A stretch of 64,000 nt of DNA from a candidate division WWE3 bacterium (GCA_013335095.1 JAAXWF010000002.1:261-64260), one strand, 5' to 3'; positions 5,409 to 56,814 are shown, counted from the stretch's first letter. Notes: generated from the sequence alone by a model not told the origin. A program made the numbers and translations.

Positions 5409-5412
5409 ACGG

Positions 5413-16046: not shown

Positions 16047-17495
16047 ATGTCATCTCAACCCGTGGCCACGATGGACGACCTGATAGGTCCGACCTTATCG
16101 ATCTACCCCCAGCCAGTTCTTGAAAGTGCGAAACCCGTAATCTGGGTCTGGCAAATGATTACGAGAGGGGGTAATAAGGGAGTTCCTGGAGATTCTCTGA
16201 AAGATGAGATCAAGCTACTTTTTCCCGACCTTCATGAGGATGAAGGGGAAAATAGTGCGTTCGCCATTTTTGCCGAGTTACGGAATCTAACTGTCGTTCG
16301 GGCAGAACGTGCAATGGAGGGGGTCGGGGCATGGCAATATTACGCCATTGTTCCCTATGATGAAAACCATCCTGCTCTACGTGGGCATCTGAACAAACTC
16401 CTGGTCAGATACTTCGTCGAAACGATGATAAGATCAGGGACGCAACGAAGTGATCAACTTCGCATTGGGATCGAGAAACGCTTGGCCGAGATCCACATCA
16501 CCGTCGAGCGCAAATGGCTCGACAGCGTTTTTGGTGGTGCTCTCAGGTATCTCAAAAATCGCGGCGTAATCGCCCGATCGGCCGAATCAACGGCTAAAGT
16601 TTCGGCATGGGAAATGCGCCGAACGGAAGAGGCACCCGAGGATGAGTTGGGGACTGATGATGGTCCTGGAACCTCAAGCCCTACACCGATCGACACATTG
16701 ACCGCATTGCTGTTGTCCAAACCATCTCATAGTGGGGCAACAATCAATGAATGTCGCGCAAAGGTTATCAGCGTACACCGAGATCAGTTTACAACGGCTG
16801 ATGAGGTGACGGCATGGTTACTTCAGGTACTGCAGACCGACACGAACATCGTGTTGTATCCGCCTACAATCGACAGTTACTTCGAAGGCTGTCAGCTGGT
16901 ATATCATGCTACTCGACTGCCACAATCAATTGAAGGGTTTAATCAGACCCTCAATCGGGCAATCAGTGCGATTTCGGATCTTATCGAAATACGCGCGGTC
17001 TGTACTCTGGCTGAGGTAACTCAGTTCATTGAATCGCCAAGTGGGCGTATGCTGATACCTGGAATCCTCTACAATGAGGTCCGTGATCGGATGAGACCGA
17101 AGTTCATGCGGGCGTACATTTTGCTGATCCTGGATCGTATTGTCGCATCAGGGTTAGCCTGGATAGATAACGACGGCCCAGAGACAAAATACGTCACGCA
17201 ACTCAGATCGAGCACAGCGGCGAGCGAACCGGCTGAAGCACCACGGCCTCCGGTTTTAGATGATGCTCTGGTAAATTCGGATCACCAGAGCGCATTTACC
17301 TGGCCGGTTGCTCAACCCAGTAGTCCATCGGTATCAGCCGCAAAGACAGATACGATCGCTTCACAGATCTCGGAAATCCTGCTCAGCGGGGTTGAGCAGG
17401 TCAGTGCCGTGATACCGGGCCTACCGAGTCCAGTAGTGATTCCGGTTAATCCAAAGACTCAGCGAGTAATGATCATCGTGATCGCGACTGAGTAA
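16047..17495 (+). CDS. Hypothetical soluble protein (GC-elevated)
   Basis: 482-aa ORF with an AAAGGAG RBS. It has no TM segment and no recognisable motif. GC is about 50%, against about 40% in the flanking gat and dnaE genes. A hairpin follows at 17504-17530. Confidence 0.5.
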   Translation: MSSQPVATMDDLIGPTLSIYPQPVLESAKPVIWVWQMITRGGNKGVPGDSLKDEIKLLFPDLHEDEGENSAFAIFAELRNLTVVRAERAMEGVGAWQYYAIVPYDENHPALRGHLNKLLVRYFVETMIRSGTQRSDQLRIGIEKRLAEIHITVERKWLDSVFGGALRYLKNRGVIARSAESTAKVSAWEMRRTEEAPEDELGTDDGPGTSSPTPIDTLTALLLSKPSHSGATINECRAKVISVHRDQFTTADEVTAWLLQVLQTDTNIVLYPPTIDSYFEGCQLVYHATRLPQSIEGFNQTLNRAISAISDLIEIRAVCTLAEVTQFIESPSGRMLIPGILYNEVRDRMRPKFMRAYILLILDRIVASGLAWIDNDGPETKYVTQLRSSTAASEPAEAPRPPVLDDALVNSDHQSAFTWPVAQPSSPSVSAAKTDTIASQISEILLSGVEQVSAVIPGLPSPVVIPVNPKTQRVMIIVIATE

Positions 17496-26327: not shown

Positions 26328-26975
26328 ATGCAGAAAAGGCTACTCTTGATAACTATAATATTCACAGCAGCCGCTACCGGCACTCAATTCACCCCCAACG
26401 CATATGCTGAAGCACAAAAATGCTATGGTCAATACGGCCAGGAGATTACATGTCCATTAGTTAATAAATCATTTTCAGTCCAAAAAAGAGTACGCATAAG
26501 TGGAGCAACTGATTGGAGTGAAACCGTTAACGTGAAAAGCGGTACAACCGTAGAATTTCAAATTACTGTAAAAAATACCGGTGAAGCGAAAGTCAGCAAT
26601 GTTAATGTAATTGACGTATTACCTGATAATTTAAAAGAAGCCACTGGTGCAACCCAATGGGTAATCAATGATTTTGAATCCGGACAAGAGGAAACTCGAA
26701 CATTTTCGGTAAAAGCGAACGATACTAATATTACCGATAATCAAGAAAAATGTGTCGCTAACGTCGTTAATGTTCAATATAACGGTAATCAAGAAGCCTC
26801 AGATACAGCAGTTGTCTGTATTAGTAGAAATTCACATGTCTTACCAAATCAGCTTCCTGAAACAGCTGATTCATCAACCAATTCACTAAGAATGGTATTC
26901 GGAGTTATTTTGGCGGCATTTGCCCTACTGAGCTTCGGTAAAGCTATAGAACTTAGTACTAAAAGAGCAGACTAA
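26328..26975 (+). CDS. Secreted surface protein with DUF11/CARDB-like repeat domain and LPETA sortase sorting signal
   Basis: Signal peptide MQKRLLLITIIFTAAATGTQFTPNAYA. The beta-rich domain VEFQITVKNTGEAKVSNVNVIDVLPDNL resembles the 'conserved repeat domain'. The C-terminus is LPETA, a 9-aa spacer, the hydrophobic stretch VFGVILAAFALLSFG, and the charged tail KAIELSTKRAD. Confidence 0.6.
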   Translation: MQKRLLLITIIFTAAATGTQFTPNAYAEAQKCYGQYGQEITCPLVNKSFSVQKRVRISGATDWSETVNVKSGTTVEFQITVKNTGEAKVSNVNVIDVLPDNLKEATGATQWVINDFESGQEETRTFSVKANDTNITDNQEKCVANVVNVQYNGNQEASDTAVVCISRNSHVLPNQLPETADSSTNSLRMVFGVILAAFALLSFGKAIELSTKRAD

Positions 26976-27540: not shown

Positions 27541-27615
27541 GGCGGGTTCGTCTATCGGCTAGGACTCAGGATTTTCATTCCTGCAAGACGGGTTCAACTC
27601 CCGTACCCGCTGCCA
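27541..27615 (+). tRNA. tRNA-Glu (anticodon UUC)
   Basis: GGCGGGTTCGTCTATCGGCTAGGACTCAGGATTTTCATTCCTGCAAGACGGGTTCAACTCCCGTACCCGCTGCCA. The Glu-type D-arm GTCTAtcGGctAGGAC is present. Anticodon loop UUUUCAU. CCA encoded. Confidence 0.8.
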
Positions 27616-28793: not shown

Positions 28794-29006
28794 ATAAATG
28801 CAACTTGAAATAAGGTTAACACAGACAACGCTGTTAATGCACCCAATAAAATGTAATACAGATTGATGCTTGAGATTGCGGACTTTTTTCTCATCGGCCG
28901 TATTATAACTTCTAGAACTAAGACTTGTCAAAATTATAGGGTAATAACTAACAACAAGGATACACGTTTTTTGCTTTAGTAAAAGGAAAATATCTATCCT
29001 ATAAGA

Positions 29007-29035
29007 TTGACATCCTCACCTATGAATGTTATAGT
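29007..29035 (+). promoter_or_regulatory. Sigma70-type promoter (TTGACA-17-TATAGT)
   Basis: Perfect -35 hexamer at 29007-29012 and TATAGT at 29030-29035, separated by a 17-nt spacer. It sits in an AT-rich spacer about 185 nt upstream of the GC-rich ORF at 29220. Confidence 0.5.
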
Positions 29036-29219
29036 TACAATGCATTTTTTAGCACCTCTACAATTGAATTTATCTACCATTTTTGCTGTTCAAATAAAGA
29101 TCTGCCGGCGTACTGATGTCAGGTAAAAACGTGACCTCAATACGCATGCAGATCGACAGATCTAGCAGCGGACAAGTATATTGAGTAATCGGCACAAGGA
29201 ACTGTTCAAGGAGGGACGT

Positions 29220-31040
29220 ATGGGAAGAGTGCTATCTCTGGCACGTAGGTACGCAGTCGGAGCAGCTGCCTTTGCATTGATCGCAGTGATTGCGCTTGGT
29301 GCTTCGGCGCTACTAAGCAGTGGCAATAGTGGGCAGCAATTGGCATTGGCAGGGGCGGTAACCACAACGCCGACTGTGCCAGTGGCCAGTGTTAGTCCGT
29401 CATCAGCCGCAGTAACGCTAACACCATCTTTGTCCTCGGATACGCCAACAGCAGGGGGAACCACCGCCAGCATCGACATTCAGTTCGCTCAGTCGAGCCC
29501 AACCGTAGCCCGTACCGCCGGTACGGTTACCGCAGATACCGCTGCAGGTGCATATCCAGCACCGGCGACAGCGGTCACCGATACAGTAACGAGAACGCCT
29601 CAGCCAGCGGTAGCGTCTGTGACAGCAACGCTCACACCGCTCTCCACCACAACAACGGTGCATTCCACTCTGGTGATCAGCCAGACAAATCTCAATGAGA
29701 TGTCTGGAGGGGTTGCGTCGATCTGGGATTATGAAGGAGGGCTGAGAAAAGCGACCGATGGGGAACTTCAAGTTCTAACGGATACGCTGCTGCTTCCCCA
29801 TATGGCCACGAATCTGCAAACGATCGATAAGCCTCCGTTTGCACTCGGTCAGTTTCGGCTAATCCAGCCGACGACTGATGTTACGTGCGCTGAACCGCGG
29901 CTGCAAATGCCGCATATTGGGGAAACGCCAGACAAGCTGCACATTAACTTGTCGATCCAGACAAGTAACTGTGCGTTTGTGTTCACCTTGGCTGGTACGA
30001 CAAACATCAGTCCGACGCTTCGGCCCGCATTGATGATGAACGGAGGTAGTACCCACCCGGTCTCGGTGACGCTCACTGTCCTGACAGGGAGCATGAGCAG
30101 CAAGACGGTAAACGTACCGCTCAATACCGTTAAGCAAGCAATCCCGCTTGTGCCGGACATGGCGATCGAAGTAACAATTCCGGCTAACACCTTTGTGAGC
30201 CTCGACTACGCCGACACGGCTTTGTTCGGGGTCGAGGATGTAACTGGCGTTCCAGCTGATGCTGAAACGCGATTGTTCCTCAGCGATGCAGCCCCACGTG
30301 ACGAGCCCGCGCAAAAAGCATGGGAACTTGATCAGTGGACCTATGCCGCAACCGGCCTGGCAACATACCAGAAGCAGAATGGGCAAACGCTGGATGGTAT
30401 ACCAGACAACGGTGCCCACCTCGTCTTCTCTCAGCTGGCCATGGTCGGCCCGACAAACGAGAAGTATCCCTATGGTGGCGATTCGTGTGCGTGGCATACG
30501 ATGACACCTCGCGGGGGCGGGTTCTGGTTTGCCAATGCGGATAGTCGGATCACCAATGCGCTGTGCGGCAGTATTGCTGTACGAGGCCAGGGCCGATACG
30601 TCATCACCGGTGTCTCACAGGAAAATCTGCGGCACTGGGGTGCAGATGGGGACCCGCGCGTAGCGTTCGGCATCGCGGGCCATATGAGTGGTCGCTATCG
30701 GATCACCATCGCTCAAGTTGATCTGTCCACCTCTGATACCAAGGAGGAGTTGGTTGTCACTAAAGTGATCACCTCGACTCCCTGGCTTCAGTTGACGACT
30801 GGCCGCCCTCAATTCCAGGCGGACTGGAAGGGCGAGGCTTTCGTGGTGATCGAGTTCGATACCCCCTTTGGGCAGATCGATATCGGTCCCACAGCTGGAG
30901 CAACCAGCGTTGATGTCCGGTGGCCCACCAAGCCGCAGGACGCGCCGCAGGCGTCAAATCAACTCGATCTGGTTAGAACCAGCCTACCACCAGCCACCAC
31001 AAATAGGGGGCCAGTAGTGGCTACGCCGGGAGGTAGATAA
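29220..31040 (+). CDS. Secreted/anchored Thr-Ala-Ser-rich protein (GC-rich island gene)
   Basis: AAGGAGG RBS. The protein begins MGRVLSLARRYAVGAAAFALIAVIALGASALL, a signal anchor. About 150 aa of T/A/S/V/P low complexity follow, then about 400 aa of globular sequence. Local GC is about 60%. Confidence 0.55.
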   Translation: MGRVLSLARRYAVGAAAFALIAVIALGASALLSSGNSGQQLALAGAVTTTPTVPVASVSPSSAAVTLTPSLSSDTPTAGGTTASIDIQFAQSSPTVARTAGTVTADTAAGAYPAPATAVTDTVTRTPQPAVASVTATLTPLSTTTTVHSTLVISQTNLNEMSGGVASIWDYEGGLRKATDGELQVLTDTLLLPHMATNLQTIDKPPFALGQFRLIQPTTDVTCAEPRLQMPHIGETPDKLHINLSIQTSNCAFVFTLAGTTNISPTLRPALMMNGGSTHPVSVTLTVLTGSMSSKTVNVPLNTVKQAIPLVPDMAIEVTIPANTFVSLDYADTALFGVEDVTGVPADAETRLFLSDAAPRDEPAQKAWELDQWTYAATGLATYQKQNGQTLDGIPDNGAHLVFSQLAMVGPTNEKYPYGGDSCAWHTMTPRGGGFWFANADSRITNALCGSIAVRGQGRYVITGVSQENLRHWGADGDPRVAFGIAGHMSGRYRITIAQVDLSTSDTKEELVVTKVITSTPWLQLTTGRPQFQADWKGEAFVVIEFDTPFGQIDIGPTAGATSVDVRWPTKPQDAPQASNQLDLVRTSLPPATTNRGPVVATPGGR

Positions 31041-31174
31041 TTTTTAGAGGATTGTAAACAGCGGGCGGAGAGCACATCTTCGCCCTTTTTTATATACCTA
31101 ATAAGTTGATATTCACACTATAAGATATTATAATTTATGTGTTTCTAGATGAACGGCTAGCATAGGAGGACCCG

Positions 31175-32392
31175 ATGGGCAAACAGAGACGCTGGAGATT
31201 AGTGTACTCACTAATCATCTTGACGGGAGTCGTGTTACTGGGAGGCCACCAATACGCACGGGCATCAACGAAATACTTTTCGATGCTGCCAATGGTCCGA
31301 ACCTACCAGGCAGCCCAGCACACCCCGCAGACGGTAGAATACTGTGCGGAGGGGCTAGGGCAGCTCTATAACCAGAGCATCGGTGTATGCGGTAACAACG
31401 AAGCAGCACTGGCTCTGGAGATGCGCGCGAGCCTGGAGGGTGGCGAGGTCAAGCCGGGTGAGTTTGCCGGCCCAATCTATGGGGTTCAGCTCCAAATCAG
31501 TAGTCGACATGCACAAAATATCGGCTACCCCAATGGAGCGACACTCTACGAACTGGGCGGAAGCAAACGATTCCCAGAGCGGGATCCCATAGCCAGTACG
31601 CCGGTAACATTTGATCTGCCATCAGGCAGATATGGTTTGGGGCAATTCGTTGAGCCACCGCCCACCACGCCGACGACAGCGACACCGACTTCGACCACGG
31701 CACCGCCAACACCAAGTCCAACGACGACGGCAACAGCCACGCCTACACCGACGTATTGTCAGTCGGTGGGTATGCTCGATATCCCCGGATGGAATCACCA
31801 CATCTGTGGGGATCAGCAGATGGTGGATCTCGCCCAAGGATTGCTTCCGGGCCAGGTACGTGCCGGAACATTCCAGATTTGGCTCAAGGAACTACCTGCG
31901 GATCATGGTTATCCATCATATGGGGCCATGTTCTACGGGAATAGCCCTGGGGTAGAGGAGATGTCGGTACCGATTCCACTTGGTCAGCAGGTTACAATCC
32001 AGCTGTCGAGTGACTCGGGTGGAGTGAATCCGATCTGGGGGCTCGGACCCGGACCACTGCCAGTTGACGCCTGCCCTGGGGATTTGGTCAACCAGCTCAC
32101 GCGGATGTCCACCGGAGTCTGTGGCGACACCGCAGCTGAGACAGCAAACACACGGGAGTCGGCCCAGTTAGGTCAACTGGTGATTGCTGAGGTCAACGAG
32201 ACGGTACGCCTATGGATTAATCCAGACTTCGCCGGTAAAAATCCTGGCCATGGGTTTGTTAGCGGTGCATGTTTGTATAAGGCGGCATCAACCGATGCCG
32301 TCTATATCCCCTCTGGGGGATCACCAGGGCTGTTTATACTCAGCCAGGGTACGTGGGGAATAAGCACAGACACGAGCTGCCATCAGAGCTAG
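31175..32392 (+). CDS. Secreted protein with TPTT linker (GC-rich island gene)
   Basis: Signal peptide MGKQRRWRLVYSLIILTGVVLLGG. A central linker PPPTTPTTATPTSTTAPPTPSPTTTATATPTPT separates two Cys-containing domains. GC is about 60%. A terminator hairpin lies at 32418-32448. Confidence 0.55.
   Translation: MGKQRRWRLVYSLIILTGVVLLGGHQYARASTKYFSMLPMVRTYQAAQHTPQTVEYCAEGLGQLYNQSIGVCGNNEAALALEMRASLEGGEVKPGEFAGPIYGVQLQISSRHAQNIGYPNGATLYELGGSKRFPERDPIASTPVTFDLPSGRYGLGQFVEPPPTTPTTATPTSTTAPPTPSPTTTATATPTPTYCQSVGMLDIPGWNHHICGDQQMVDLAQGLLPGQVRAGTFQIWLKELPADHGYPSYGAMFYGNSPGVEEMSVPIPLGQQVTIQLSSDSGGVNPIWGLGPGPLPVDACPGDLVNQLTRMSTGVCGDTAAETANTRESAQLGQLVIAEVNETVRLWINPDFAGKNPGHGFVSGACLYKAASTDAVYIPSGGSPGLFILSQGTWGISTDTSCHQS
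31650..31760 (+). repeat. Low-complexity ACN/CCN codon repeat encoding a Thr/Pro/Ala linker
   Basis: ccaccacgccgacgacagcgacaccgacttcgaccacggcaccgccaacaccaagtccaacgacgacggcaacagccacgcctacaccgacg, inside ORF 31175..32392. Confidence 0.7.
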
Positions 32393-32446
32393 GCTAGCCG
32401 TGCACTTTGTATAACCGAAGCCCGGATCTTATGATTCGGGCTTTTT

Positions 32447-34330
32447 TTATTTAACGCGGAAGATCGCCATAGATTGATTTTCAAATAGCAGTTCAAAATC
32501 TGAAGATGATTTCAACGTGTTAATATAAACTAAATCACCTTGGGTTAAATCACGTGGTCTCCAGATATTAAAGTAATTCGCTTTACGTTGATCCATAGTT
32601 GCCTGCTGCCATTCAAAAAAACGTCCACTTACGACAAAGAGACGAGTTGTATCTGATTGTGGATTATTTATATCTTCAACTTTTTTAACCGCCTGAGCAA
32701 TTAATTTACTATCTGGGTTGGGAAAGGTGAAATCGACTAAATGACGGGTTTGATCATCGGCGTATGCTCCCCCTTGTGAATTAATTCCGGTATATGCCTC
32801 AAGGATATATTGAGTAGCTGGCTCACTAACCAAAAATACTTCACTCGGATCAGAAAACGTATTGGAGAGATACTTTGCCGCCTCGATCTCGCCTTCGGTT
32901 ACATGAGTATAAATTTTGTGATATCGAATATATTGCTTAAACTCAAACTGTTGATTGAATGTAAAAACTAACGACATAATGGCAATCCAGAATGAAAAAA
33001 GAATAATTTGAATCCGACGAGATCGAATAGCCATAACAAGCCACCCCAAACCAATCGACATTACAACATGGATATAAAATCGGGCAAAGGTATACAACTT
33101 TATATTGTAAGGGAACGGGAAGACGATACCAACTAACATCACCAAAGCAACTAAAACGGCGATTTTAGCCCATAGGTCTCTTTTTATAAGCCCAATAGCG
33201 CTGCCGAGTGGTACGAGGATATAAAGACTTAGTCCATACCAATTTTGGAAGATTCGGTTTTTCTCAGCAAGGGTTAAATCAAAGTACTTACTCTCGTCGC
33301 TATGAAAAGGATTAATACCAAGTCGAGCATTAAAAATAATTACGATCATTAAAAGCACAAGCGAAATTACGATCAACACTTGGATCCAACGCAAAACATT
33401 ATCTAAAGGAATTCCTTTTTGCTCACGATCAATAATGAACAGCAAAAATACCGCCAAGATAAACAAAGACACGGCGGCAACGGTCCCGACAAAAAAGTGA
33501 CTTAATATCAAAAAAACGCTCCAAACAATCAGTGGTATCCAGCCAATCCATTGTTTCCGTCGAACGCCCTCAATCAATGAAATAGTCATAATGACAGATA
33601 GGACGGCGATGACCGTTTGAGGTAAATGAAACAAAGAGGTATATGCTATATACGACTCAAATACAAATGCACCAAATAATACACCGATAACTGTAGGTCG
33701 CTGTCGATGAGTAAATGACCATACAATCCATCCAGATACGATAACCACAATAATATAATGTACAATCTCAAGCATCCAGTAATACCCAAATAAATCGACC
33801 GGTAAAAGTACGGTCGGAATATAGAGTAGCACATGATAAAACGGTAAGTACGTATTTACGAGAAAAGTGTCAGAGTATGATTTTAAATAAAGGGAAAACT
33901 CGCCCTGACGCATTTGCTGTATTAATGTTAAGTGTTCGTAAATATCCCAATTTAATGGAGAAGGATAAGGACTATTTCCCCTCCAAATAGTAAGCCCGAT
34001 ACCGATAATAATCACCGTAAAAATGGTAGGCATAAGCCAATGTTTTGTTAACCTTATTTTGGCCAACGTACGAATATCTTTATAAAAAGCACCAAGAGGT
34101 ACAAGGAGCGAGACGATCTCAAATCGTAGTAATATATGCTGAATGTTAACGCTCAGATCAAAAAGCTTTCCTACATAAGAAGTACCAGCAACCAACAGAG
34201 TTAACGTAAGTGTACCGGCAATCCAAATGGTTGGGATCTGAATTCGCCAACGACATACTTTACTAATCCAATATCCAATACTTATCGGTATCAAGTAAAA
34301 TAGAATGGCAGCACAAAGTGTAGTAATCAT
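32447..34330 (-). CDS. Polytopic membrane protein, GT-C-like (putative lipid-linked-sugar glycosyltransferase)
   Basis: 627 aa with about 13 TM helices and a C-terminal extracytoplasmic domain of about 190 aa. The first loop carries the motif NWDIYEH. It is a paralogue of 37190..38755. Confidence 0.45.
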   Translation of the reverse strand: MITTLCAAILFYLIPISIGYWISKVCRWRIQIPTIWIAGTLTLTLLVAGTSYVGKLFDLSVNIQHILLRFEIVSLLVPLGAFYKDIRTLAKIRLTKHWLMPTIFTVIIIGIGLTIWRGNSPYPSPLNWDIYEHLTLIQQMRQGEFSLYLKSYSDTFLVNTYLPFYHVLLYIPTVLLPVDLFGYYWMLEIVHYIIVVIVSGWIVWSFTHRQRPTVIGVLFGAFVFESYIAYTSLFHLPQTVIAVLSVIMTISLIEGVRRKQWIGWIPLIVWSVFLILSHFFVGTVAAVSLFILAVFLLFIIDREQKGIPLDNVLRWIQVLIVISLVLLMIVIIFNARLGINPFHSDESKYFDLTLAEKNRIFQNWYGLSLYILVPLGSAIGLIKRDLWAKIAVLVALVMLVGIVFPFPYNIKLYTFARFYIHVVMSIGLGWLVMAIRSRRIQIILFSFWIAIMSLVFTFNQQFEFKQYIRYHKIYTHVTEGEIEAAKYLSNTFSDPSEVFLVSEPATQYILEAYTGINSQGGAYADDQTRHLVDFTFPNPDSKLIAQAVKKVEDINNPQSDTTRLFVVSGRFFEWQQATMDQRKANYFNIWRPRDLTQGDLVYINTLKSSSDFELLFENQSMAIFRVK

Positions 34331-34333
34331 TTT

Positions 34334-35179
34334 TTAGTAGATAGCTAATTGTTCAAGGGTCAATATTTTTATATGTTGGTTCACGTTTAACTCCTTTTGA
34401 ATAGGGTACTCAAATGTTTCAAGTGATCCGATTAAATTATACTGACGATCAATCGTAACGACATTAGTATTTATTACATCCATCAGTAGTGCACGTTTGC
34501 TACTCTCATTGTAAATTGCAATATAACGAATACCACTTAGAGTACGAAGGTTTTCAGCTATTTGAGGATCTGACTTTAACCCAAGTTTCTTTAATAAATC
34601 AACGTTGGTTAATTGTGTATATACAATTCCATTTGAATCAAACACAATGTCTTCGCTCGTAAATCCCAATGTATTAACATAACCTGAGGCCTTATCTGAC
34701 ATGTTCTGTATTGTTTTGGTAATAATAATCTCATTATTTGTTGATTGAGCATCATATTCAACATAGTTGCGTTGATCTGATGCATATCTCACGATCGGAG
34801 TACCTGCTATGGACCGAATTCGATACCAGATAGTGTCTAAACGCCATTGTGAAGCCCTTTTGATATATATATTCGTAATATCTTCATTAGCGAAGGCAAG
34901 CTTCTCTATTCGAGTACTATTAGTTTCGTCGGCAAGCACTAATGCGTCATCATAAGGGGATACTTTGTAATAAATTGAAGGATTCCGATCATGGTTAAGG
35001 CTTATAGAATACTCGTATGCTTGAACATTAAATCCATCAACGCTTAAGCGAGAAGGGACATTAAGGCGTTGACCACTAATAATTACAATTATGCCGATCG
35101 TTATAATTAAAGAAATAAGTAATATTTGCACCCAGAGCTTATATCTCATAGTCTTTACTATTTTACTATACGTATACAA
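34334..35179 (-). CDS. Membrane-anchored extracytoplasmic protein (hypothetical)
   Basis: 281 aa with an N-terminal TM helix. It is co-directional with, and 4 nt upstream of, the GT-C-like gene. Confidence 0.4.
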   Translation of the reverse strand: MYTYSKIVKTMRYKLWVQILLISLIITIGIIVIISGQRLNVPSRLSVDGFNVQAYEYSISLNHDRNPSIYYKVSPYDDALVLADETNSTRIEKLAFANEDITNIYIKRASQWRLDTIWYRIRSIAGTPIVRYASDQRNYVEYDAQSTNNEIIITKTIQNMSDKASGYVNTLGFTSEDIVFDSNGIVYTQLTNVDLLKKLGLKSDPQIAENLRTLSGIRYIAIYNESSKRALLMDVINTNVVTIDRQYNLIGSLETFEYPIQKELNVNQHIKILTLEQLAIY

Positions 35180-35236: not shown

Positions 35237-36013
35237 ATGTTTCGACAAAAAACAATTACTGTTGTACTACCTTGTAAAAATGAAGAAAAAGGCATCGTAC
35301 CTACGATAAAAGCAATTCCTACATACGTTGATGAAATCATAGTCGTGGATAATGGATCAAACGACAACACCGCGCGCTTAGCCAAACGACATGGTGCTCG
35401 GGTAATTAAAGAATCACGAAAACAGCATGGTATTGGATATGGTTATGCTCATATGACCGGTATTAATTCAGCCAAAGGCGATTACATTGTCGGCATGGAT
35501 GGGGATGGAACTTATCCAGCCGAAGCGATAAAAGAAGTCATAAAATACATGGAAAAAAATAAACTGAACATGGTTTCATGTAATCGATTTCCACTCCAGC
35601 ACCGAGCGATATCATGGATTAGACAGATCGGTGTTCACATTTTGAACTGGGAAGTACGAATCCTATATGCCTACCCAATGAAAGATATATTAACCGGCAT
35701 GTGGGTTATAAAGCGCAGTGCACTCAATCATTTAGATTTAAAAGAAGGAGATTGGAATTTATCACCCGAAATTAAACTTGCTGCAATAACAAGCCCACAT
35801 ATTCGATTCGGGCAGTTCCACATCAACCATCATGTCAGGACTGGAGAAAGTAAACAGAATATTTGGAAAACTGGGTATGATCATTTTATGTATATTTTTT
35901 TACGAAGAGTGACAACAGATAACAAAGTAACGCACGTCCTTCGAAATGCATATCAGTCAACGATTTTAGGACTGCGAAGTATGGTCGTAGGATTTTCTCA
36001 ACGGATCCGATAA
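35237..36013 (+). CDS. Glycosyltransferase family 2, polyprenol-phosphate sugar synthase (Dpm1/Ppm1-like)
   Basis: 258 aa. VVLPCKNEEKGI...VVDNGSNDNT...GMDGDGTYP has the size and motifs of dolichyl/polyprenyl-phosphate mannose or glucose synthases. Confidence 0.75.
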   Translation: MFRQKTITVVLPCKNEEKGIVPTIKAIPTYVDEIIVVDNGSNDNTARLAKRHGARVIKESRKQHGIGYGYAHMTGINSAKGDYIVGMDGDGTYPAEAIKEVIKYMEKNKLNMVSCNRFPLQHRAISWIRQIGVHILNWEVRILYAYPMKDILTGMWVIKRSALNHLDLKEGDWNLSPEIKLAAITSPHIRFGQFHINHHVRTGESKQNIWKTGYDHFMYIFLRRVTTDNKVTHVLRNAYQSTILGLRSMVVGFSQRIR

Positions 36014-36019
36014 CTTACT

Positions 36020-37207
36020 ATGAACCAACATCCCTTCCGAATACTCGCATTACTCACTTTTTTTTATCCCCATCGAGGTGGCAGTCAAAAATATGCCGAA
36101 GACTTGTACGTCGGACTGTTGGAGCATAATCCATCAACCGAAATAGATGTTCTTTGTTACAACACATGTAAACAACCACATGAGGAATATTATCGGGGTC
36201 TGCATATCTATCGAGTGGCATGTTTTACCATCATCCCAGATCGATTTGTTCTACCAAATCCGATCACGCTTATGAGAACATTATGGAAGCTTCGGACGAG
36301 GAAGTACAACATTGTTAACCCTCACGTTCAATTCTTTGATGTGAGCTGGTGGGGATGGATATATGCAAAACTGATCAACGCAAAATCGATTTGTACCGTG
36401 CATACTGACCATGCCAAACATCAATCAAAATTCATTCAATTAGTGGCCCGTTTCATCGATGAAACCATTGTTAGAGCTTCATTAAAACGATACGATCACA
36501 TAACGGTAGAAAATGAACATACTCAACGTTTTATTATCAATAAGTACCATGTAGTAAATACAACAGTTGTGCGTGGAACAATTGATACACGACAATTTAG
36601 CCATGAAAATAGAACAACACTCGTAAAAATACCAGGTACCGATATATTAGTCGGACCCAATACTCAGATAGTTAGTTATATTGGACGATTACTATGGACT
36701 AAAGGCGTTTTATATGCATATGAAGCATTTAGGGAATTGGCATATTCACGTGGAGATGTACTATTTGTTATAGCTGGTCCTGGAGAATTATATGAACAAC
36801 TAGCGTCAAAAATTATGAGGGATGGACTATCACAAAAAGTTCTCCTGACTGGAAATTTAAATTATGCCGAAGTGCAACAGTTACTTCGTATTACCGATAT
36901 TTTTACCTTACCCACCCATCATAATGAAGGGATACCAATCATCCTACTCGAAGCGGGGGCAAGTAAATGTACCGTCATAACAACAAGTGTCGGCGGAATT
37001 GCGGAGATTATTGATGATCAGTCGGGATACATTATAAAAACTCACGATCCTCGGATGTTAAAAGATACAATAGAATATGCTTTAAACCATCCTGAGGAAC
37101 GAAAAACACTCGCGAATAATTTACAACAGAAAATCAAAAATAAACACGATATAAGCATAGTTAGTGAAGAGTTTTCAAGAGTAGTAGAATCAATTGTCAG
37201 CAAATAA
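36020..37207 (+). CDS. Glycosyltransferase family 4
   Basis: GT-B fold with C-terminal EGIPIILLEAGASKCTVITTSVGGIAEII. Confidence 0.75.
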   Translation: MNQHPFRILALLTFFYPHRGGSQKYAEDLYVGLLEHNPSTEIDVLCYNTCKQPHEEYYRGLHIYRVACFTIIPDRFVLPNPITLMRTLWKLRTRKYNIVNPHVQFFDVSWWGWIYAKLINAKSICTVHTDHAKHQSKFIQLVARFIDETIVRASLKRYDHITVENEHTQRFIINKYHVVNTTVVRGTIDTRQFSHENRTTLVKIPGTDILVGPNTQIVSYIGRLLWTKGVLYAYEAFRELAYSRGDVLFVIAGPGELYEQLASKIMRDGLSQKVLLTGNLNYAEVQQLLRITDIFTLPTHHNEGIPIILLEAGASKCTVITTSVGGIAEIIDDQSGYIIKTHDPRMLKDTIEYALNHPEERKTLANNLQQKIKNKHDISIVSEEFSRVVESIVSK

Positions 37208-38755
37208 TTCGAGTACAATAATATTTGGATCACGAATCACCTCATGAAATGCCCCGTCAGTTAGCAGCATGTCTGCATACTTAATCCCCTCAATTGATAG
37301 TTCCCGAGGAGCCCAAATGGATACGGTGTTATCCGACCTGAGTTGGTTGGGCAACCGCTGCCAGGCCATAAATCGGCCATCGATTACAAACAAGATGCGG
37401 GTAGCTGGTGCTTGGATAAGATCCCGTATGGAACGGAGTTGCGTCTTAACATCATCAATTGATTTGCTTGGGAATAGATTATCAATAGAAGTTCGATTTG
37501 CATCACGAACAAAAACGCCACCAGGAGTATTAATACCCGATATGCCTTCAAAAACCTGCATAGTTGCCGGATCACTTATAAGTATAGTGCTCGAATCAGA
37601 GCCATATTTTTCTTTTAACCTCAATGCGGTCGAGATCTCATCTTCTGATGATGTTGCAGGTCCAAGATACGAAGCATAGGCCATTTTATACGTAATCTGA
37701 TTGATATAAAAGTTAATACACAAAAGGGCTAAAAGACTTCCACCGATAACTGTTCGCCATCTAATCTGCGAGAACTGATCGAGTAGGCAGAGTCCGCCAA
37801 TGCTCATGATCGTAAATATAAAGTAGCGCGTGAGGGTGTAAAGCTTAAGTACGTACGGAAATGGACTTAAAATAATGCATAGTTGAACGAGGGTAATGAT
37901 TGATATAACGTGCAAATTATTACTATCTTTCCGCCCGATAGCAAATAGACCGATAAAGAATAAAACCCACCACCCACCATACCATTGCAATAGAGTTTGA
38001 ACTTTATCGATAAGCGATACGGTAAAAAGACGACTCTCGATCGTATTAAACGGATCCCATCTAAAAAGTCCACTGTTTAATAACAAAATCATCACCAGGA
38101 AAAAAATATGCAGGAAAATCAGTTTTCTTTTGTCTTGAAATATTCTTTCGAGATACGATCGATACCGTAAACATAAAAGTAAAATAACGGCTAAGCTTAG
38201 TGCATAAAATCCAAGCACCGCATGAAACAACCATGCAACGCTAATTAAAATCACAGAAAAATAATATTTCCTTTTAATTATCAGCGTCAAACTAATCAAT
38301 CCAATAACCGAAGCCGCTGTTTGAGGCACAAAAGAAAAGCCCGATTGCGAAAGTAATGATTCAAAGCTCAATGCACCAATTAATCCAGATATTAACCACA
38401 CCCGTCTATCGTTAGTCCAGATTGATGAGAACACAAAAGCTAATGTAGCACACAGAATATAAAACAAGCCTTCAATCAACCACCAACTCGTTTGTAGGGT
38501 TAGAAATCGTTGCAAGAATGATGATAATAAACCAAAACATACCGCAAACAGTGGAGTATACATCGCATACTGAAACGTATCAGAAAGATGTGTCGGTAAA
38601 AGACTTAAGTTCCCAGATACAATAATCGACCATAACCCAGCGTGCTGATATAAATCCCATGTTAAGCTACCCAGAGGCCTCCCCAAACTAAAGATAATCC
38701 AGACAAGGATTCCGGTACATAATACAGTTACATAATATAGCCACGTTTTTTTCAT
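37190..38755 (-). CDS. Polytopic membrane protein, GT-C-like (paralogue of 32447..34330)
   Basis: 521 aa and multi-TM. Loop-1 motif SLTWDLYQHAGL (compare PLNWDIYEHLTL in the paralogue). A C-terminal soluble domain is present. Confidence 0.45.
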   Translation of the reverse strand: MKKTWLYYVTVLCTGILVWIIFSLGRPLGSLTWDLYQHAGLWSIIVSGNLSLLPTHLSDTFQYAMYTPLFAVCFGLLSSFLQRFLTLQTSWWLIEGLFYILCATLAFVFSSIWTNDRRVWLISGLIGALSFESLLSQSGFSFVPQTAASVIGLISLTLIIKRKYYFSVILISVAWLFHAVLGFYALSLAVILLLCLRYRSYLERIFQDKRKLIFLHIFFLVMILLLNSGLFRWDPFNTIESRLFTVSLIDKVQTLLQWYGGWWVLFFIGLFAIGRKDSNNLHVISIITLVQLCIILSPFPYVLKLYTLTRYFIFTIMSIGGLCLLDQFSQIRWRTVIGGSLLALLCINFYINQITYKMAYASYLGPATSSEDEISTALRLKEKYGSDSSTILISDPATMQVFEGISGINTPGGVFVRDANRTSIDNLFPSKSIDDVKTQLRSIRDLIQAPATRILFVIDGRFMAWQRLPNQLRSDNTVSIWAPRELSIEGIKYADMLLTDGAFHEVIRDPNIIVLELFADN

Positions 38756-39417
38756 ATCGGTATTGCTGGAATTCGCTTAAAAGATTGTTGGATATGGTAC
38801 ATAGGTATCTGCATAGAGTCTGATAACGAAATAATCACCTCATGCTGCGCCCAGTTGATATGAGCTTGAGTCCGGTCAGGCAAAGAGAACTCAATACCCT
38901 CAGATAATTGATCATTTATTAACTTAAATGTTGTACCAGCACTGAATGAACTCTCAAGATGAAAGGATCCAACACTGATATCGTCTCCATTCACATATAC
39001 ATGATCTTCGGGAGAGAATTCAATTACATATTTATAATCGGATGATCCAATGTTCCTTGGTGATATAGTTTGATCCCACATAAGGATATTATCCTTCGTA
39101 TTTATCGTGCTGGACCCAATATTTGTTTGATTTAATGTGAGTGGAAAAGATAGTGTATTCGTAAATATAACACTCAATAAGGAGCTGAAATTTATAGTCT
39201 GTATGGCGGATTGTTGTGCATTTTCATAGTAAGAATGGAGACTATACGTGTGAGCTCTTAATAAATCATCTTGAAGTACGAATGATGAATTCATTGGCGT
39301 TATCGTAAAACTACCCCATCGCAGCATTTGTATTTTTCCTAATGATAAATAAATACTGTAACAACTAATCATGATGATGGTAAGAACACCGATCCACGGA
39401 GTATATTTTTTATCCAT
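38752..39417 (-). CDS. Membrane-anchored extracytoplasmic protein (hypothetical)
   Basis: 221 aa with an N-terminal TM helix. ATGA overlap with the downstream GT-C-like gene. Confidence 0.4.
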   Translation of the reverse strand: MDKKYTPWIGVLTIIMISCYSIYLSLGKIQMLRWGSFTITPMNSSFVLQDDLLRAHTYSLHSYYENAQQSAIQTINFSSLLSVIFTNTLSFPLTLNQTNIGSSTINTKDNILMWDQTISPRNIGSSDYKYVIEFSPEDHVYVNGDDISVGSFHLESSFSAGTTFKLINDQLSEGIEFSLPDRTQAHINWAQHEVIISLSDSMQIPMYHIQQSFKRIPAIPI

Positions 39418-39507: not shown

Positions 39508-40224
39508 ATGAAAAACTCAAAAAATCATTATTCATTTCAATTGATGCATGTAGCGATTCTACTGCGAGGTATTGCAGTTGGATTATTATTTCTTGGCGGT
39601 ACAATGGCGTTCGTGGGCGCATATCCAATTCTTTTTTCCGAGATACATTATGAAATAAACCAACAAGCCGAAGCAAAAGTCATAGAAAATACAACAAATA
39701 TGGATCCCAATCGTTCGAATTTTGGCGAAATACTACGCATCGCCCCAATACTTAGACAAACACCGGTCAATACGACAAACGCAATCGTAATCGATCAAAT
39801 CGAAGTTAACGTACCTGTTGTATGGGATGTTTCGGTTGTAAATAAAAACGATTACAACAGTGCATTGAAAATTGGAGTTGCTCATGCTGCCGGAACAAGT
39901 TATCCTTCCCAAAACGATGGAAACACCTATCTATTTTCACATTCAACCCTAAACCCGCTTGAAATTGAAAAATATTCGGCTGCATTCACGTTACTGCACC
40001 GACTAGAGATCGGAGATAAGATCGTGGTTTTCCGAGACAACCATAGGTATGACTACGTAGTGGAACAGAAAGAGGTGGTCAAGGGCTTTAATACCGATCC
40101 ATTAACTCGTCAGCCAGATTATCCTCAATTAACGCTACAAACGTGCGACCCACCTGGAATTCCATTAAATCGTCTGATTATTACGTCACGAATGGTCGCC
40201 GATTACGAGGTCTCTGGAAAGTAA
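39508..40224 (+). CDS. Sortase (cysteine transpeptidase)
   Basis: N-terminal TM anchor. The His box is LFSHSTLNP, the catalytic Cys motif is LTLQTCDPPG, and the conserved Arg is in LIITSRMV. Confidence 0.8.
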   Translation: MKNSKNHYSFQLMHVAILLRGIAVGLLFLGGTMAFVGAYPILFSEIHYEINQQAEAKVIENTTNMDPNRSNFGEILRIAPILRQTPVNTTNAIVIDQIEVNVPVVWDVSVVNKNDYNSALKIGVAHAAGTSYPSQNDGNTYLFSHSTLNPLEIEKYSAAFTLLHRLEIGDKIVVFRDNHRYDYVVEQKEVVKGFNTDPLTRQPDYPQLTLQTCDPPGIPLNRLIITSRMVADYEVSGK

Positions 40225-49633: not shown

Positions 49634-49832
49634 ATGTTTGTCTTATAGTATAAAACAACATACTATATTTGCACCTAATACAAATCATCAGGGGGCAGAA
49701 TGGATATGGATTTATTCGATATTCACTTTGCCCTCTAATGAGAGCTGGGCATTTTGCCCATGGAAGCTCGATTTGGAGTGGTTTGTAAAGCCACACTGAT
49801 AGGAGGGGTTGAATACCCCAGGAGGTGTCCAG

Positions 49833-50846
49833 ATGGTTGACATTCTGCATCGCGAAGATACTCGCGAAGAGACTGTTCGTACACGTCGCGCACGCCCTGA
49901 GCAGTTGGGGGCGGTGATTCCGCCCAGTGTCGAGGGCCTAACGCCATGGAGGGAGGATCCCCGGTACGAATACCGGACCCCGGAGAACCTTCCGTGGCCG
50001 GCGGCATTCATCTGGGTAGTCAACACAGCGCCTCGCAGGCCTGGCGACAAGAACACCCAAATGAGCCGGCGTCAGGGGGAGATCCTCTGGGCCGCGCCGA
50101 TGTGGTCCGTCTCGATGCGTAAGACCATTCCGCCGACGGCGGAGAGGGCTCTGAGCATCGCCCGGCGCAAGAAGGGGCCGGAGATTCGGCCCGACCAGGT
50201 GAGTTTCGCCCTGGCGATCTACAAGAAGGGGCGTATTCGCCCCCATTCAGATCTCCTGGGGGAACCAGCGGGGAACTACTTCGAGCTGGTATTCACTCTG
50301 AATCCCCTCGAGATCGAGGCGATTCTGATGAATCCCGATAACGATGCTACGATGCTTCTGGAGAAGCTCGACGCTCAGGGATACCTGGGTGTTCCGGCTG
50401 ATCCGAGCCGAGCCGAGGAGATCAAGGACCGCGTGCTACAGCAGATGGTCACGTTGATCAAGGCAGCAGGTCGTACCGACCTGCTCGAAGTGAGCAACAC
50501 GGCAGACAGCAGCACTCCCAGCATCGGCGAGGGGGATCTGTTGATCACCGCCGCTGATATCGAGGCCGCACGTGGTTACGTGAAGGCAGCGCAGTTCGCA
50601 ATGCCGACACAGTCACAGGTTGCGACGACTCTGGCCCTGCTGGAGAAGAAGGGGCGTACCCTCGTCCCGACTGCCCTGCTGGCCGATCTGCCGGAGGAGC
50701 TGCTGACGAAGTACGGCCTCAAGCGGCCCGACTCAGTCAGTCCGGCTCCCGCCGCGGTCAAGCCTGCGGTTGCGCCCGCAGAGCCGCCGGCTCCCGCAAA
50801 GCAGCCGGCTTCGTCCGCCCTGGCCGCCCTGCTGGGCGGTAATTAA
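49833..50846 (+). CDS. Hypothetical protein with Pro/Ala-rich C-terminal tail (island gene A)
   Basis: GGAGG lies 7 nt upstream of the ATG at 49833 (MVDILHREDTREETVRTRRARPEQ...). The ORF-track TTG at 49809 is rejected. The C-terminus is PAPAAVKPAVAPAEPPAPAKQPASS. GC is about 60%. Confidence 0.5.
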   Translation: MVDILHREDTREETVRTRRARPEQLGAVIPPSVEGLTPWREDPRYEYRTPENLPWPAAFIWVVNTAPRRPGDKNTQMSRRQGEILWAAPMWSVSMRKTIPPTAERALSIARRKKGPEIRPDQVSFALAIYKKGRIRPHSDLLGEPAGNYFELVFTLNPLEIEAILMNPDNDATMLLEKLDAQGYLGVPADPSRAEEIKDRVLQQMVTLIKAAGRTDLLEVSNTADSSTPSIGEGDLLITAADIEAARGYVKAAQFAMPTQSQVATTLALLEKKGRTLVPTALLADLPEELLTKYGLKRPDSVSPAPAAVKPAVAPAEPPAPAKQPASSALAALLGGN

Positions 50847-50884
50847 GCAGGGGATTAGGTTCGTGTTCGTCCGTTAGCAACAGT

Positions 50885-50914
50885 CCAAAGGCCACCTTGA
50901 GTGGTGGCCTTTGG
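50885..50914. terminator. Stem-loop (12-bp perfect stem) after island gene A
   Basis: CCAAAGGCCACC-ttgagt-GGTGGCCTTTGG. No clear U-tract. A 290-bp AT-rich spacer follows. Confidence 0.45.
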
Positions 50915-51225
50915 ACCACTCAATTAAATTATTGACCTTGTCAGTCTTTATGATCCAGAATCGTAAAGAGTGATAAGGTCGACAGACCAAACAATCTATG
51001 TAGGGTCGGTGCGGCCATATACACAAAACCAAATTTAAGACAGTTTGGTTTTTTTCATAATTGGTGTATAAGAATTATGTAATAAAACGCACATTTACAA
51101 AGATAAATACCACACTCAGAGGGACTATTAATGACAAGTAATATGCTCATTCATTAATTGTTTTTAATAGCCCCTTTGGGTGAAGCCGTTTTACGGCTTG
51201 TGGAAGTCTTTATCGGGAGGTGTCT

Positions 51226-51597
51226 ATGACACGGGTTAACAGGTTGCGACTGGCCTCAACAGTCGCAGCAGCATTCATGGCCGCAACGCTGGCCTTGGTG
51301 CTGCTCGTTGGGAGCGGGTCGGAATACACCGCCCGCGTCGGATTCGTGGTTACCATTCTAACCATCGCGTTAGTGCCAACGGCGCTGACCGCGGTGGTCG
51401 CATGGGTGGTGCCGCCAGTGCGCGCGTCATGGCGCACCTGGTACGGCACAAGCTTCGGAGGAGCGATCCTTTCGTCGGTAGCCATGTCGTTTAAGGGGGA
51501 GCTCTATGCCCCGCAACGGCAGGTTATCGTCGAGCAGGTCGAGACTCCAGCTGAGCCCGCTGGTCCGGACCCAGGCTATACCGTCATCAGCTACTAA
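51226..51597 (+). CDS. Small 3-TM membrane protein (island gene B), directly upstream of the rho-like gene
   Basis: GGGAGG RBS, then ATG at 51226 (MTRVNRLRLASTVAAAFMAATLALVLLV...). Three hydrophobic helices and a Pro/Glu C-terminal tail. The stop is 12 nt before the rho-like start. Confidence 0.45.
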   Translation: MTRVNRLRLASTVAAAFMAATLALVLLVGSGSEYTARVGFVVTILTIALVPTALTAVVAWVVPPVRASWRTWYGTSFGGAILSSVAMSFKGELYAPQRQVIVEQVETPAEPAGPDPGYTVISY

Positions 51598-51609
51598 AGG
51601 GGGCTGACA

Positions 51610-53193: not shown

Positions 53194-53199
53194 GAAACA

Positions 53200-53240
53200 C
53201 CTGTCGCAGCAGCAAACGCTGCGACAGGTTACTATTTTAA
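53200..53240 (+). terminator. Intrinsic terminator after rho-like gene
   Basis: CCTGTCGCAGC-agcaaac-GCTGCGACAGG is an 11-bp perfect stem, followed by TTACTATTTT. Confidence 0.7.
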
Positions 53241-53314
53241 TATTGTGGATTTAAAAAATCTGTTTTCTAACGGATTCTTTTAGTTCATAATGTCGCACAT
53301 TAAGAATATTGACT

Positions 53315-53388
53315 CACATGGGTCGGTTGTCATCATCATCGTTGGTGGTTACAACTGACCCATGTGGGTTGCCCTGGTTTAACCAGGG
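53315..53388 (+). promoter_or_regulatory. Two stem-loops/palindrome immediately upstream of island gene D
   Basis: A long imperfect hairpin at 53315-53366 has 10-bp perfect outer arms, CACATGGGTC...GACCCATGTG. The perfect palindrome CCCTGGTTTAACCAGGG at 53372-53388 abuts the ORF-track start. A TTGACT -35-like hexamer lies at 53309. Confidence 0.4.
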
Positions 53389-53412
53389 ATGGAGTTCACA
53401 CCGGAGGGTCAT

Positions 53413-54693: not shown

Positions 54694-54705
54694 CATATAT
54701 TGGAT

Positions 54706-54737
54706 GGGAGAGAGGCGACTCTCTCCCTTTTTTTTTA
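54706..54737 (+). terminator. Intrinsic terminator after island gene D
   Basis: GGGAGAGAG-gcga-CTCTCTCCC, followed by T10. Confidence 0.8.
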
Positions 54738-54752
54738 TCTAAGGAGGAGCCA

Positions 54753-56636: not shown

Positions 56637-56658
56637 AATACTAAGGTCATACATCAAA

Positions 56659-56688
56659 CCGGCCACTGGGAAACCAGTGGCCTTTTTT
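56659..56688 (+). terminator. Intrinsic terminator after island gene E
   Basis: GGCCACTGG-gaaa-CCAGTGGCC, followed by TTTTTT. Confidence 0.8.
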
Positions 56689-56814
56689 ATATAATTAACG
56701 TTTAAACGATGTCGTAAGATTGTAAGAATTTTTCGAGATCGCTTAAGACGCCGATCAACCACGCCCCTTAAATTTAGCCCTCGGGCCGGGCAGTCTAGCG
56801 CAAGGAGGTTGACC

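Follow-up and report, generated by a model that had tools for sequence, protein, structure and literature searches.

GC-rich genes for two predicted exported proteins in a probable variable slot beside a conserved, putative envelope-glycosylation module of a candidate division WWE3 bacterium

The DNA analyzed here is a window of 64,000 nt (GCA_013335095.1, JAAXWF010000002.1:261-64260) from the chromosome of a candidate division WWE3 bacterium, a member of the Candidate Phyla Radiation (CPR; Patescibacteria) represented by a metagenome-assembled genome (MAG), in which it belongs to a 358-kb contig. Among housekeeping genes that include dnaE, clpB, gatAB, ruvABC, uvrAB and those for enolase and PPDK, along with six tRNA genes, lies a GC-rich region occupied by two open reading frames on the + strand, ORF1 (29220-31040) and ORF2 (31175-32392). 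These form two separate transcription units, each with its own near-consensus sigma-70 promoter, ribosome binding site (RBS) and terminator. Both encode predicted exported proteins rich in Thr, Pro and Ala, as a first-pass annotation of the sequence had proposed, and N-terminal Sec signals are seen in each.

The GC content of positions 29101-32400 is 0.557, more than five standard deviations from the background of 0.398 ± 0.030 (500-bp windows). The GC-rich island of the first-pass annotation is thus real, although the figure of ∼60% given for 29.1-32.4 kb was slightly too high. The coding sequences (CDSs) themselves have GC contents of 0.570 (ORF1) and 0.565 (ORF2). The excess is even along both and independent of the linker in ORF2, a gene whose GC content without that linker is still 0.558. 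At codon positions 1, 2 and 3, GC is 0.59, 0.54 and 0.58 in ORF1 and 0.60, 0.52 and 0.58 in ORF2, compared to ∼0.50, 0.36 and 0.32 in host genes; the composition, earlier termed foreign, is indeed deviant at all three positions. GC at fourfold-degenerate sites is 0.55-0.63 versus 0.36 in host genes, with codon choice shifted mainly to G-ending codons. Recoding the two proteins with host codon usage yields a GC content of 0.49, indicating that about half of the excess stems from amino-acid composition and about half from synonymous codon choice. The excess ends at the CDS limits, intergenic DNA having a GC content of 0.36-0.37 (0.362 for 28794-29219). Genes for native secreted proteins nearby are low in GC (0.38 for a DUF11-repeat protein and 0.34 for a 281-aa protein, p281), and so is the highly expressed rpL19 at third codon positions (GC3 of 0.26), with the enolase and ClpB genes likewise not GC-rich. 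The values for the DUF11, p281 and rpL19 genes argue that neither secretion nor high expression is the cause of the offset. An independent Logan assembly (SRR11449211) is 100% identical over 13.8 kb across both island junctions, and hence the island is not an assembly chimera.

ORF1 is preceded by a sigma-70-type promoter at 29007-29035 (+), with TTGACA and TATAGT separated by 17 nt and a TG extension; it scores 11 of 12 matches and is embedded in AT-rich DNA. The start codon, ATG at 29220, follows an AGGAGG RBS, and the product is 606 aa in length (NTV30913/HGA91_02980). An intrinsic terminator at 31063-31085 (+), made of a 9-bp stem and then TTTTTT, ends the unit. The public annotation of HGA91_02980 begins at an internal GTG and comprises 473 aa, which drops the RBS, the signal sequence and most of a Thr-rich stalk (29220-29618 affected). 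The Logan gene call, by contrast, has the complete length of 606 aa. At the composition of ORF1, 606 consecutive codons would be free of stops by chance with a probability of ∼1e-10.

Within the ∼180-nt 5' leader of ORF1, where the rise in GC begins, is an imperfect hairpin at 29099-29154 (+), with 26-nt arms (29099-29124 and 29129-29154) that are 81% complementary and a 4-nt loop. The predicted folding energy of the leader is −50.5 kcal/mol (z = −2.8), and the hairpin has no match in Rfam. It corresponds to an inverted repeat placed earlier at 29099-29160, which is real and larger than stated; as a hairpin of the 5' untranslated region, however, it does not mark an island boundary. No T-run comes after it and nothing at the right end of the island pairs with it, so it is neither a terminator nor part of a terminal-repeat pair.

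Residues 1-36 of the ORF1 product form a predicted Sec signal or signal-anchor, basic and then hydrophobic (segment 7-36), with possible cleavage between ASA and L, after A30. A low-complexity stalk of 121 aa follows (residues 45-165; 29352-29714, +), composed of 24% T, 16% A, 12% S, 12% V and 9% P. The signal-anchored protein with about 150 aa of T/A/S/V repeats that had been described is therefore present, but the segment is shorter, and Tandem Repeats Finder detects no tandem repeats in it at the DNA level. The rest of the protein (residues 166-606; 29715-31037, +) is a globular part that appears beta-rich in a low-confidence model: single-sequence AlphaFold2 prediction of this head gives mostly strands, at a mean predicted local distance difference test score (pLDDT) of 38.9, too poor for use. 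The protein ends in ...LPPATTNRGPVVATPGGR, lacking both an LPXTG-type C-terminus and a C-terminal hydrophobic segment.

On the opposite strand, a perfect 12/12 sigma-70 promoter (TTGACA-18-TATAAT, 28931-28902) is divergent from the ORF1 promoter and lies 7 nt upstream of an ATG. This codon opens a hydrophobic ORF of 34 aa (MRKKSAISSINLYYILLGALTALSVLTLFQVAFI; 28894-28790, −), which resembles a leaderless small membrane peptide and whose end overlaps the stop codon of a gene for a family 4 glycosyltransferase (GT4). An 18-nt inverted repeat (28926-28943 and 28995-29012) joins the −35 regions of the two promoters.

ORF2 has a promoter of the same type at 31106-31134 (+; TTGATA-17-TATAAT), an AGGAGG RBS just before its ATG at 31175, and an intrinsic terminator at 32417-32444 (+) with a 12-bp stem and T-run, situated between convergent genes; this terminator had been recognized previously at 32418. 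The product (405 aa; NTV30914/HGA91_02985) carries a predicted signal peptide in residues 1-30, with cleavage between ARA and S, and three copies of a domain of ∼100 aa, located at residues 53-160 (31331-31654, +), 192-296 (31748-32062, +) and 297-405 (32063-32389, +). Domains 1 and 3 match one another with E = 5e-5, and a hidden Markov model (HMM) of the domain scores 84-102 bits per copy. Between domains 1 and 2 is a Pro/Thr (PT) linker of 33 aa (residues 161-193; 31655-31753, +), whose sequence is exactly as quoted in the first-pass annotation for its signal-peptide protein. In an alignment of 15 domain copies, C-x15-CG is nearly invariant, and a G-x-W-G-L-G motif is also evident. Structure prediction, which had been suggested for the C-terminal domains of both proteins, was informative in this case, with an AlphaFold2 model of domain 2 reaching a pLDDT of 90.3 and a predicted template-modeling (TM) score of 0.82; the model of the ORF1 head was unusable. 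Foldseek returned no fold match for domain 2 (best E = 0.89 in PDB and 0.19 in BFVD, TM score ≤0.38). The ORF2 domain is a previously undescribed Cys-bridged, beta-rich module. ORF2, too, has no LPXTG-type C-terminus, ending in ...DTSCHQS. As the LPXTG-hydrophobic-basic arrangement is absent from the C-termini of both proteins, we rejected their assignment as LPXTG sortase substrates.

To find relatives of the two proteins, we queried 5.8 billion proteins through a word index, scanned 1.84 billion representatives exhaustively with HMMER, and ran tblastn on phage and plasmid sequences. ORF1 matched nothing but itself among 5.8 billion clusters, even with the globular part alone as query. For ORF2, the word-indexed search gave a single match, P0002 (46% identity), and HMMER added P0004, P0005, P0006 and P0007, bringing the ORF2 family to six database entries; a seventh allele was found on contig L020. 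Four of the six relatives of ORF2 are syntenic in other CPR contigs, one is on a contig too short for its context to be assessed, and one is P0007. The CPR members have N-terminal signal-like sequences and two to three tandem domain copies. P0007 (L017, 10001-12439) is the sole member outside a CPR-like context, encoded in a 248-kb contig of 64% GC. It is a protein of 812 aa with a PA14 domain, a long T/P/S linker and one C-terminal domain copy, which lacks the Cys pair and is 42% identical to ORF2 domain 2 (E = 3e-5). The same contig encodes a cytochrome cd1 nitrite reductase and DsrE/DsrC.

Neither ORF1, ORF2 nor any of the 15 domain copies has a sequence or profile match in Pfam, NCBIfam, PHROGs or PDB. 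There was also no match in 50,697 phage and 72,556 plasmid records (tblastn) or in IMG/VR, and a scan of genome contigs with the ORF2 profile returned nothing. A metagenome match to this profile, on the 65% GC contig L003, proved spurious, being the C-terminus of a short-chain dehydrogenase that ends in QSIGVCGN. This short match recurred unchanged in contigs L002 and L004, and the domain HMM hit only loci of the family. A homology check against Actinobacteria had been proposed; the database searches gave no actinobacterial homologue. It is indeed low-GC relatives that carry the closest homologues, a result that had been named in advance as evidence against foreign acquisition if the linkers also explained the GC elevation, which they do not.

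In five CPR contigs (the window, L001, L015, L018 and L020), the ORF2-family gene is convergent to a gene for a homologue of the polytopic membrane protein of 627 aa that, in the window, is encoded at 32447-34330 (−). The family gene is always GC-richer than its neighbors, by 9-20 points: 0.565 versus 0.34-0.39 in the window, 0.60 versus 0.41-0.43 in L001, 0.64 versus 0.47-0.55 in L018, 0.615 versus 0.44-0.52 in L020, and 0.59 versus 0.45-0.47 for the membrane-protein module genes in L015, where a partial upstream RadA gene has a GC content of 0.53. The orthologue in L001 shows the same layout of terminator, promoter and RBS upstream, and an equivalent terminator downstream, all in AT-rich spacers. 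Just upstream of P0006 in L018 is a second, partial ORF2-domain gene (2-544; GC 0.645), and hence the slot there holds two family genes in tandem.

Codon alignments of the window and L001 give amino-acid identities of 46% for ORF2, 46% for the membrane protein, 36% for p281 and 64% for a family 2 glycosyltransferase (GT2); BLASTP values for the last three are 44%, 37% and 63%. In each of the four genes, codons at conserved residues agree as often as chance would predict, indicating that synonymous sites are saturated. The island copies in the window and L001 keep a GC3 of 0.58-0.73, compared to 0.32-0.38 in the flanks. Because the L001 orthologue has diverged like the native flanks and synonymous sites are saturated, a recent, not-yet-ameliorated import is ruled out. 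The positional counterpart of ORF1 in L001 is GC-rich and barely alignable to ORF1 (BLASTP E = 0.15; shuffle z = 3.6-4.4), while ORF2 has kept 46% identity.

Contigs L015 and L020 are much closer to one another, with nucleotide identities in the flanks of 91.4% on the RadA side and 92.4% on the membrane-protein side. The family genes that these flanks enclose show no recognizable similarity at the nucleotide level, and their products are just 30% identical. The match between the two contigs breaks off ∼80 nt before the start codon and resumes at the stop codon. This is the pattern that would be expected from cassette replacement by recombination in conserved flanks, under diversifying selection.

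The membrane-protein gene that converges on ORF2 belongs to a larger conserved module. Its product has ∼12 hydrophobic segments and a C-terminal soluble part, and its family shows invariant W-D-I-Y-x-H and D-T-F motifs. No match for it was found in Pfam, NCBIfam or the PDB sequences. Its topology would suit a GT-C glycosyltransferase, as would a conserved acidic motif in a loop. Directly preceding this gene is that of p281, a signal-anchored protein (34334-35179, −), which is kept with the membrane-protein gene in L001, L005 and L015. The GT2 gene (35237-36013, +) best matches polyprenol-phosphate-hexose synthases (AglJ, DPM-like, PpgS); in NCBIfam, AglJ (1e-30), dolichyl-P-hexose transferase and PpgS rank highest, all under the curated cut-offs. 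A GT4 gene (36020-37207, +) follows it. Next comes a second copy of the module (37190-39417, −), encoding a membrane-protein paralogue of 521 aa (28% identical, E = 1e-52) together with a signal-anchored protein of 221 aa, and after that a sortase gene; the other GT4 gene is upstream of ORF1. The membrane protein is present in 13 of 13 related loci, at 27-45% identity, including loci in Saccharibacteria- and Levybacteria-labelled MAGs. Of the 13 loci, whose contigs extend far enough for such an assessment, 12 also have GT2 and 9 have GT4. A GtrA gene (PF04138) is inserted in the module in L018 only, with none detected in the window, where a Wzx-like gene (3155-4447) is 28 kb away from the module. 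The module may be a new GT-C-like envelope glycosylation system of CPR bacteria. The position of ORF1 and ORF2 in a neighborhood of glycosylation and sortase genes fits glycosylation of their products but does not show it.

Some further observations concern this neighborhood. In L012, another GC-rich orphan gene (3346-5424; 0.61-0.66 versus ∼0.41 GC) lies directly beside the same membrane-protein/GT2/GT4 module, on a CPR-like contig. Its product, of 692 aa, has a central transmembrane segment and a T/P/G-rich linker. Loci L008, L010 and L012, all with the CPR module, bear Gammaproteobacteria titles, which are apparently mislabels. The sortase gene (39508-40224) is 13 kb from the gene for the DUF11-repeat protein (26328-26975), which has a sortase-type C-terminus (LPETA, a transmembrane segment and KRAD); the two are likely an enzyme-substrate pair, and their composition is AT-rich and native. 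A separate polysaccharide cluster at 3155-9910 encodes the Wzx-like flippase, a GT2, a GT4, a second GT2 and two Wzy_C/O-antigen-ligase-like proteins.

More GC-rich coding segments are present in the window, at 16047-17495, 49809-57453, 59789-60388 and 63353-63982 (GC 0.50-0.63, GC3 ≤0.78), alternating with AT-rich housekeeping genes (gatB, dnaE, uvrB and uvrA). Together with ORF1 and ORF2, they make up ∼19% of the window. The genes they contain are orphans with no Pfam or PHROG match, except for those encoding a Rho-like ATPase (51610-53193; match below cut-off, AbrB/MazE-like N-terminus) and a DksA/TraR-like zinc-finger protein (56809-57453). Their products appear cytoplasmic or membrane-bound rather than secreted. 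We found no paralogy with ORF1 or ORF2, or among the GC-rich proteins of the window.

Taken together, we think it probable that ORF1 and ORF2 are exported surface-protein genes of a small CPR group, held in a variable slot beside a conserved envelope-glycosylation module. For the cause of their GC offset, we lean toward a pool of exchanged cassettes. Under this model, each gene would be expressed from its own promoter, RBS and terminator, elements that are observed and of host type. Both products would then be exported, as suggested by their N-terminal Sec signals and by a gene for signal peptidase I (S26) in the window (27-596). ORF1 would display a beta-rich head of ∼440 aa on its Thr/Ala/Ser/Val/Pro stalk of ∼120 aa, the architecture being seen and the role conjectural. 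The three modules of ORF2 would bind something, with the cell's own envelope glycan, the neighboring glycosylation machinery, and the surface of a host or partner cell as candidate ligands. Diversifying selection and cassette replacement through conserved flanks, of the kind suggested by L015 and L020, would keep the slot variable. Finally, the GC-rich coding composition would mark a gene pool with a history unlike that of the chromosome backbone, and not a recent actinobacterial import. A surface or host-interaction role for ORF1 and ORF2 is plausible, as is O-glycosylation of the ORF1 stalk and the ORF2 linker in this genome.

Several considerations weigh against this reading. The orthologues in the window and L001 both keep a GC3 of 0.58-0.66 despite saturated synonymous sites, which could equally mean that constraint acts in place, and the analysis turned up no GC-rich source pool. 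The cassette swap is seen in a single pair of other genomes (L015 and L020), with no close relative of the window's genome found. The convergent adjacency of the family gene and the membrane-protein gene could be an inherited gene order instead of a functional link, and the GT-C nature of the membrane protein is putative. The PT linker is not conserved in the ORF2 family, being essentially absent from P0005 and P0006, and therefore linker glycosylation cannot be the conserved function of the family. Any conserved link to the glycosylation genes would thus more likely involve binding of the glycan or the machinery. Export, surface location, binding and glycosylation of the two products are all predicted roles.

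The strongest alternative, which we view as possible though doubtful, is that the genes have been inherited vertically and that a gene-specific force holds their composition GC-rich, with no need for an external pool. Such a force might be selection for Ala/Gly/Pro/Thr-rich extracellular proteins together with codon or mRNA features, or GC-biased gene conversion at a recombination hot spot. The synteny common to five contigs would be explained in this way, as are the divergence of the ORF2 orthologue, which is about that of the flanks (46% versus 36-64%) with synonymous sites saturated throughout, the restriction of the offset to CDSs while promoters and terminators are AT-rich, and the half of the offset due to amino-acid composition. 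Harder to accommodate is the GC content at fourfold sites, 0.55-0.74 compared to 0.36-0.40; to our knowledge, an offset of this size far exceeds the effects of GC-biased gene conversion or codon selection reported in bacteria. The shift to G-ending codons is not common to rpL19, enolase and ClpB, and unrelated orphan genes elsewhere in the window, cytoplasmic in appearance, have the same composition. L015 and L020, moreover, differ by outright allele replacement with sharp breakpoints rather than by gradual change in place.

That a high-GC actinobacterial donor recently supplied two genes for adhesins or glycoproteins, as put forward in the first-pass annotation, now seems very improbable. Such a donor would account for genes that are GC-rich at three codon positions and proteins whose amino-acid make-up is typical of a ∼60% GC genome. 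The PT linker of ORF2 resembles actinobacterial linkers, and P0007, with a domain 42% identical to ORF2 domain 2, is encoded in a non-CPR contig of 64% GC. That protein (E = 3e-5) is, however, the only high-GC homologue found, and no actinobacterial relative was detected: ORF1 is an orphan and the relatives of ORF2 are mostly syntenic proteins of diverged CPR genomes, with saturated synonymous sites. The intergenic DNA and regulatory signals are host-like, and mobility genes, flanking repeats and an adjacent tRNA gene are all wanting. With respect to the last three, no integrase, transposase or Pfam domain of that kind was found in any window ORF of at least 150 aa, no pair of direct repeats flanks the island, and the gene for tRNA-Glu (27541-27615) is parted from the island by the native GT4 gene and is thus not adjacent. 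Of the marks of a classical horizontally acquired island, the locus has the deviant composition but neither mobility signatures nor a donor lineage or patchy distribution.

It is highly unlikely that the island is what remains of a prophage, a plasmid or another integrated mobile element, coding for example for receptor-binding or superinfection-exclusion surface proteins. Orphan products of deviant composition would suit such an element, as would the other GC-rich orphan blocks in the window, one of which encodes the TraR/DksA-like zinc finger. Against this stand the absence of matches in PHROG, IMG/VR and the phage (50,697) and plasmid (72,556) records, the absence of integrase or structural phage genes in the window, and a stable chromosomal synteny. 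An integron gene cassette was considered as well. The attC site of integrons is an imperfect palindrome, RYYYAAC ... GTTRRRY, which lies 3' of a promoterless CDS and is used by an IntI integrase. Here the hairpin (GATCTGC...GCAGATC) is 5' of ORF1 and is not an attC core, the genes have their own promoters, and there is no integrase, leading us to reject this assignment. That the island is an artefact, whether a chimeric MAG contig or non-coding DNA in which GC-richness yields long spurious ORFs (several antisense ones are seen here), can be dismissed given the 13.8 kb of perfect identity in the Logan assembly, the same layout in four other assemblies, the improbability of a 606-codon stop-free run (P ∼1e-10), and the homologues and confident fold of ORF2.

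The favored reading, a variable surface-protein slot, invites comparison with replacement-type flexible genomic islands and hypervariable surface loci of the O-antigen, S-layer or pilin type, which are swapped by recombination in conserved flanks. Like these, the slot combines flanks of ∼92% identity with a highly divergent allele (L015/L020), its ORF2-family product is predicted to be exported and is deviant in composition, and it adjoins envelope glycosylation genes. It differs in that the swapped unit is a single CDS, with breakpoints at the 5' leader and stop codon, and in being GC-richer than the host, islands of this type usually being AT-richer. The ORF2 domain is, in addition, undescribed, and replacement is seen in L015/L020 rather than in the genome of the window. 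A second point of comparison is the secreted Pro/Thr-linker proteins of actinobacteria, which are O-mannosylated by Pmt (GT39) using polyprenol-phosphate-mannose from Ppm1 (GT2). ORF2 similarly begins with a signal peptide and has folded modules separated by a PT linker of 33 aa, and next door are encoded a GT2 of the polyprenol-phosphate-hexose-synthase type and a large polytopic membrane protein. However, ORF2 has no actinobacterial homology, its linker is not conserved in the family, and its glycosylation is only putative. There is no PMT/GT39 Pfam match within the window. A third parallel, offered as a lead, is with the Rhs cores of E. coli, a GC-rich gene family whose GC content persistently deviates from that of the genome. 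As in these, the excess in ORF1 and ORF2 is CDS-restricted and kept over long divergence. Rhs proteins are toxins with YD repeats, and ORF1 and ORF2 bear no sequence or architectural similarity to them.

The neighboring module, as opposed to ORF1 and ORF2, recalls multi-component transmembrane glycosylation systems, in which a GT-A enzyme that makes a C55-P-sugar (CsbB/GtrB) acts with a GtrA/GtcA flippase and a GT-C enzyme (YfhO/GtlB) (PMC8035078, PMC11127046). A GT2, GtrA and a large polytopic protein are the signature of such systems (PMC8035078). The module has the GT2, a membrane protein of 12 segments that ends in a soluble domain and, in L018, GtrA. It departs from these systems in that its membrane protein is only putatively GT-C and that no GtrA was found in the window. 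A review speculates that small GT-C enzymes may require a separate acceptor-binding protein. By analogy, the ORF2 family or the ∼250-aa partner could be the acceptor-binding protein of this module.

A broader possibility, which we put forward tentatively and hold to be unlikely, is that this CPR group maintains a CDS-restricted, GC-rich compartment, amounting to ∼19% of the window, of orphan and surface cassettes, with the ORF2 domain serving GT-C-like enzymes as an acceptor- or glycan-binding partner. If so, cassettes would be swapped by near-exact CDS replacement between AT-rich flanks, their GC-rich sites being kept past saturation. This would imply an unrecognized GC-rich reservoir, be it a host, a partner or an undiscovered mobile element, or else a local process that raises GC. 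The GT-C-like family served by the ORF2 domain would, moreover, be an undescribed one conserved across CPR bacteria.

The locus is a clean illustration that compositional differences between single genes can be long-lived. It challenges the common assumption that a deviant GC content signals recent foreign import, on which island-prediction tools and surveys of horizontal gene transfer in Patescibacteria depend. A life attached to other cells is assumed for CPR bacteria, and little is known of the proteins that mediate this attachment. In this context, the locus offers a candidate variable slot for surface proteins, a new and confidently modelled domain suited to expression and binding assays, and a conserved, unannotated membrane-protein/GT2/GT4 module whose membrane protein is present in all 13 related loci.

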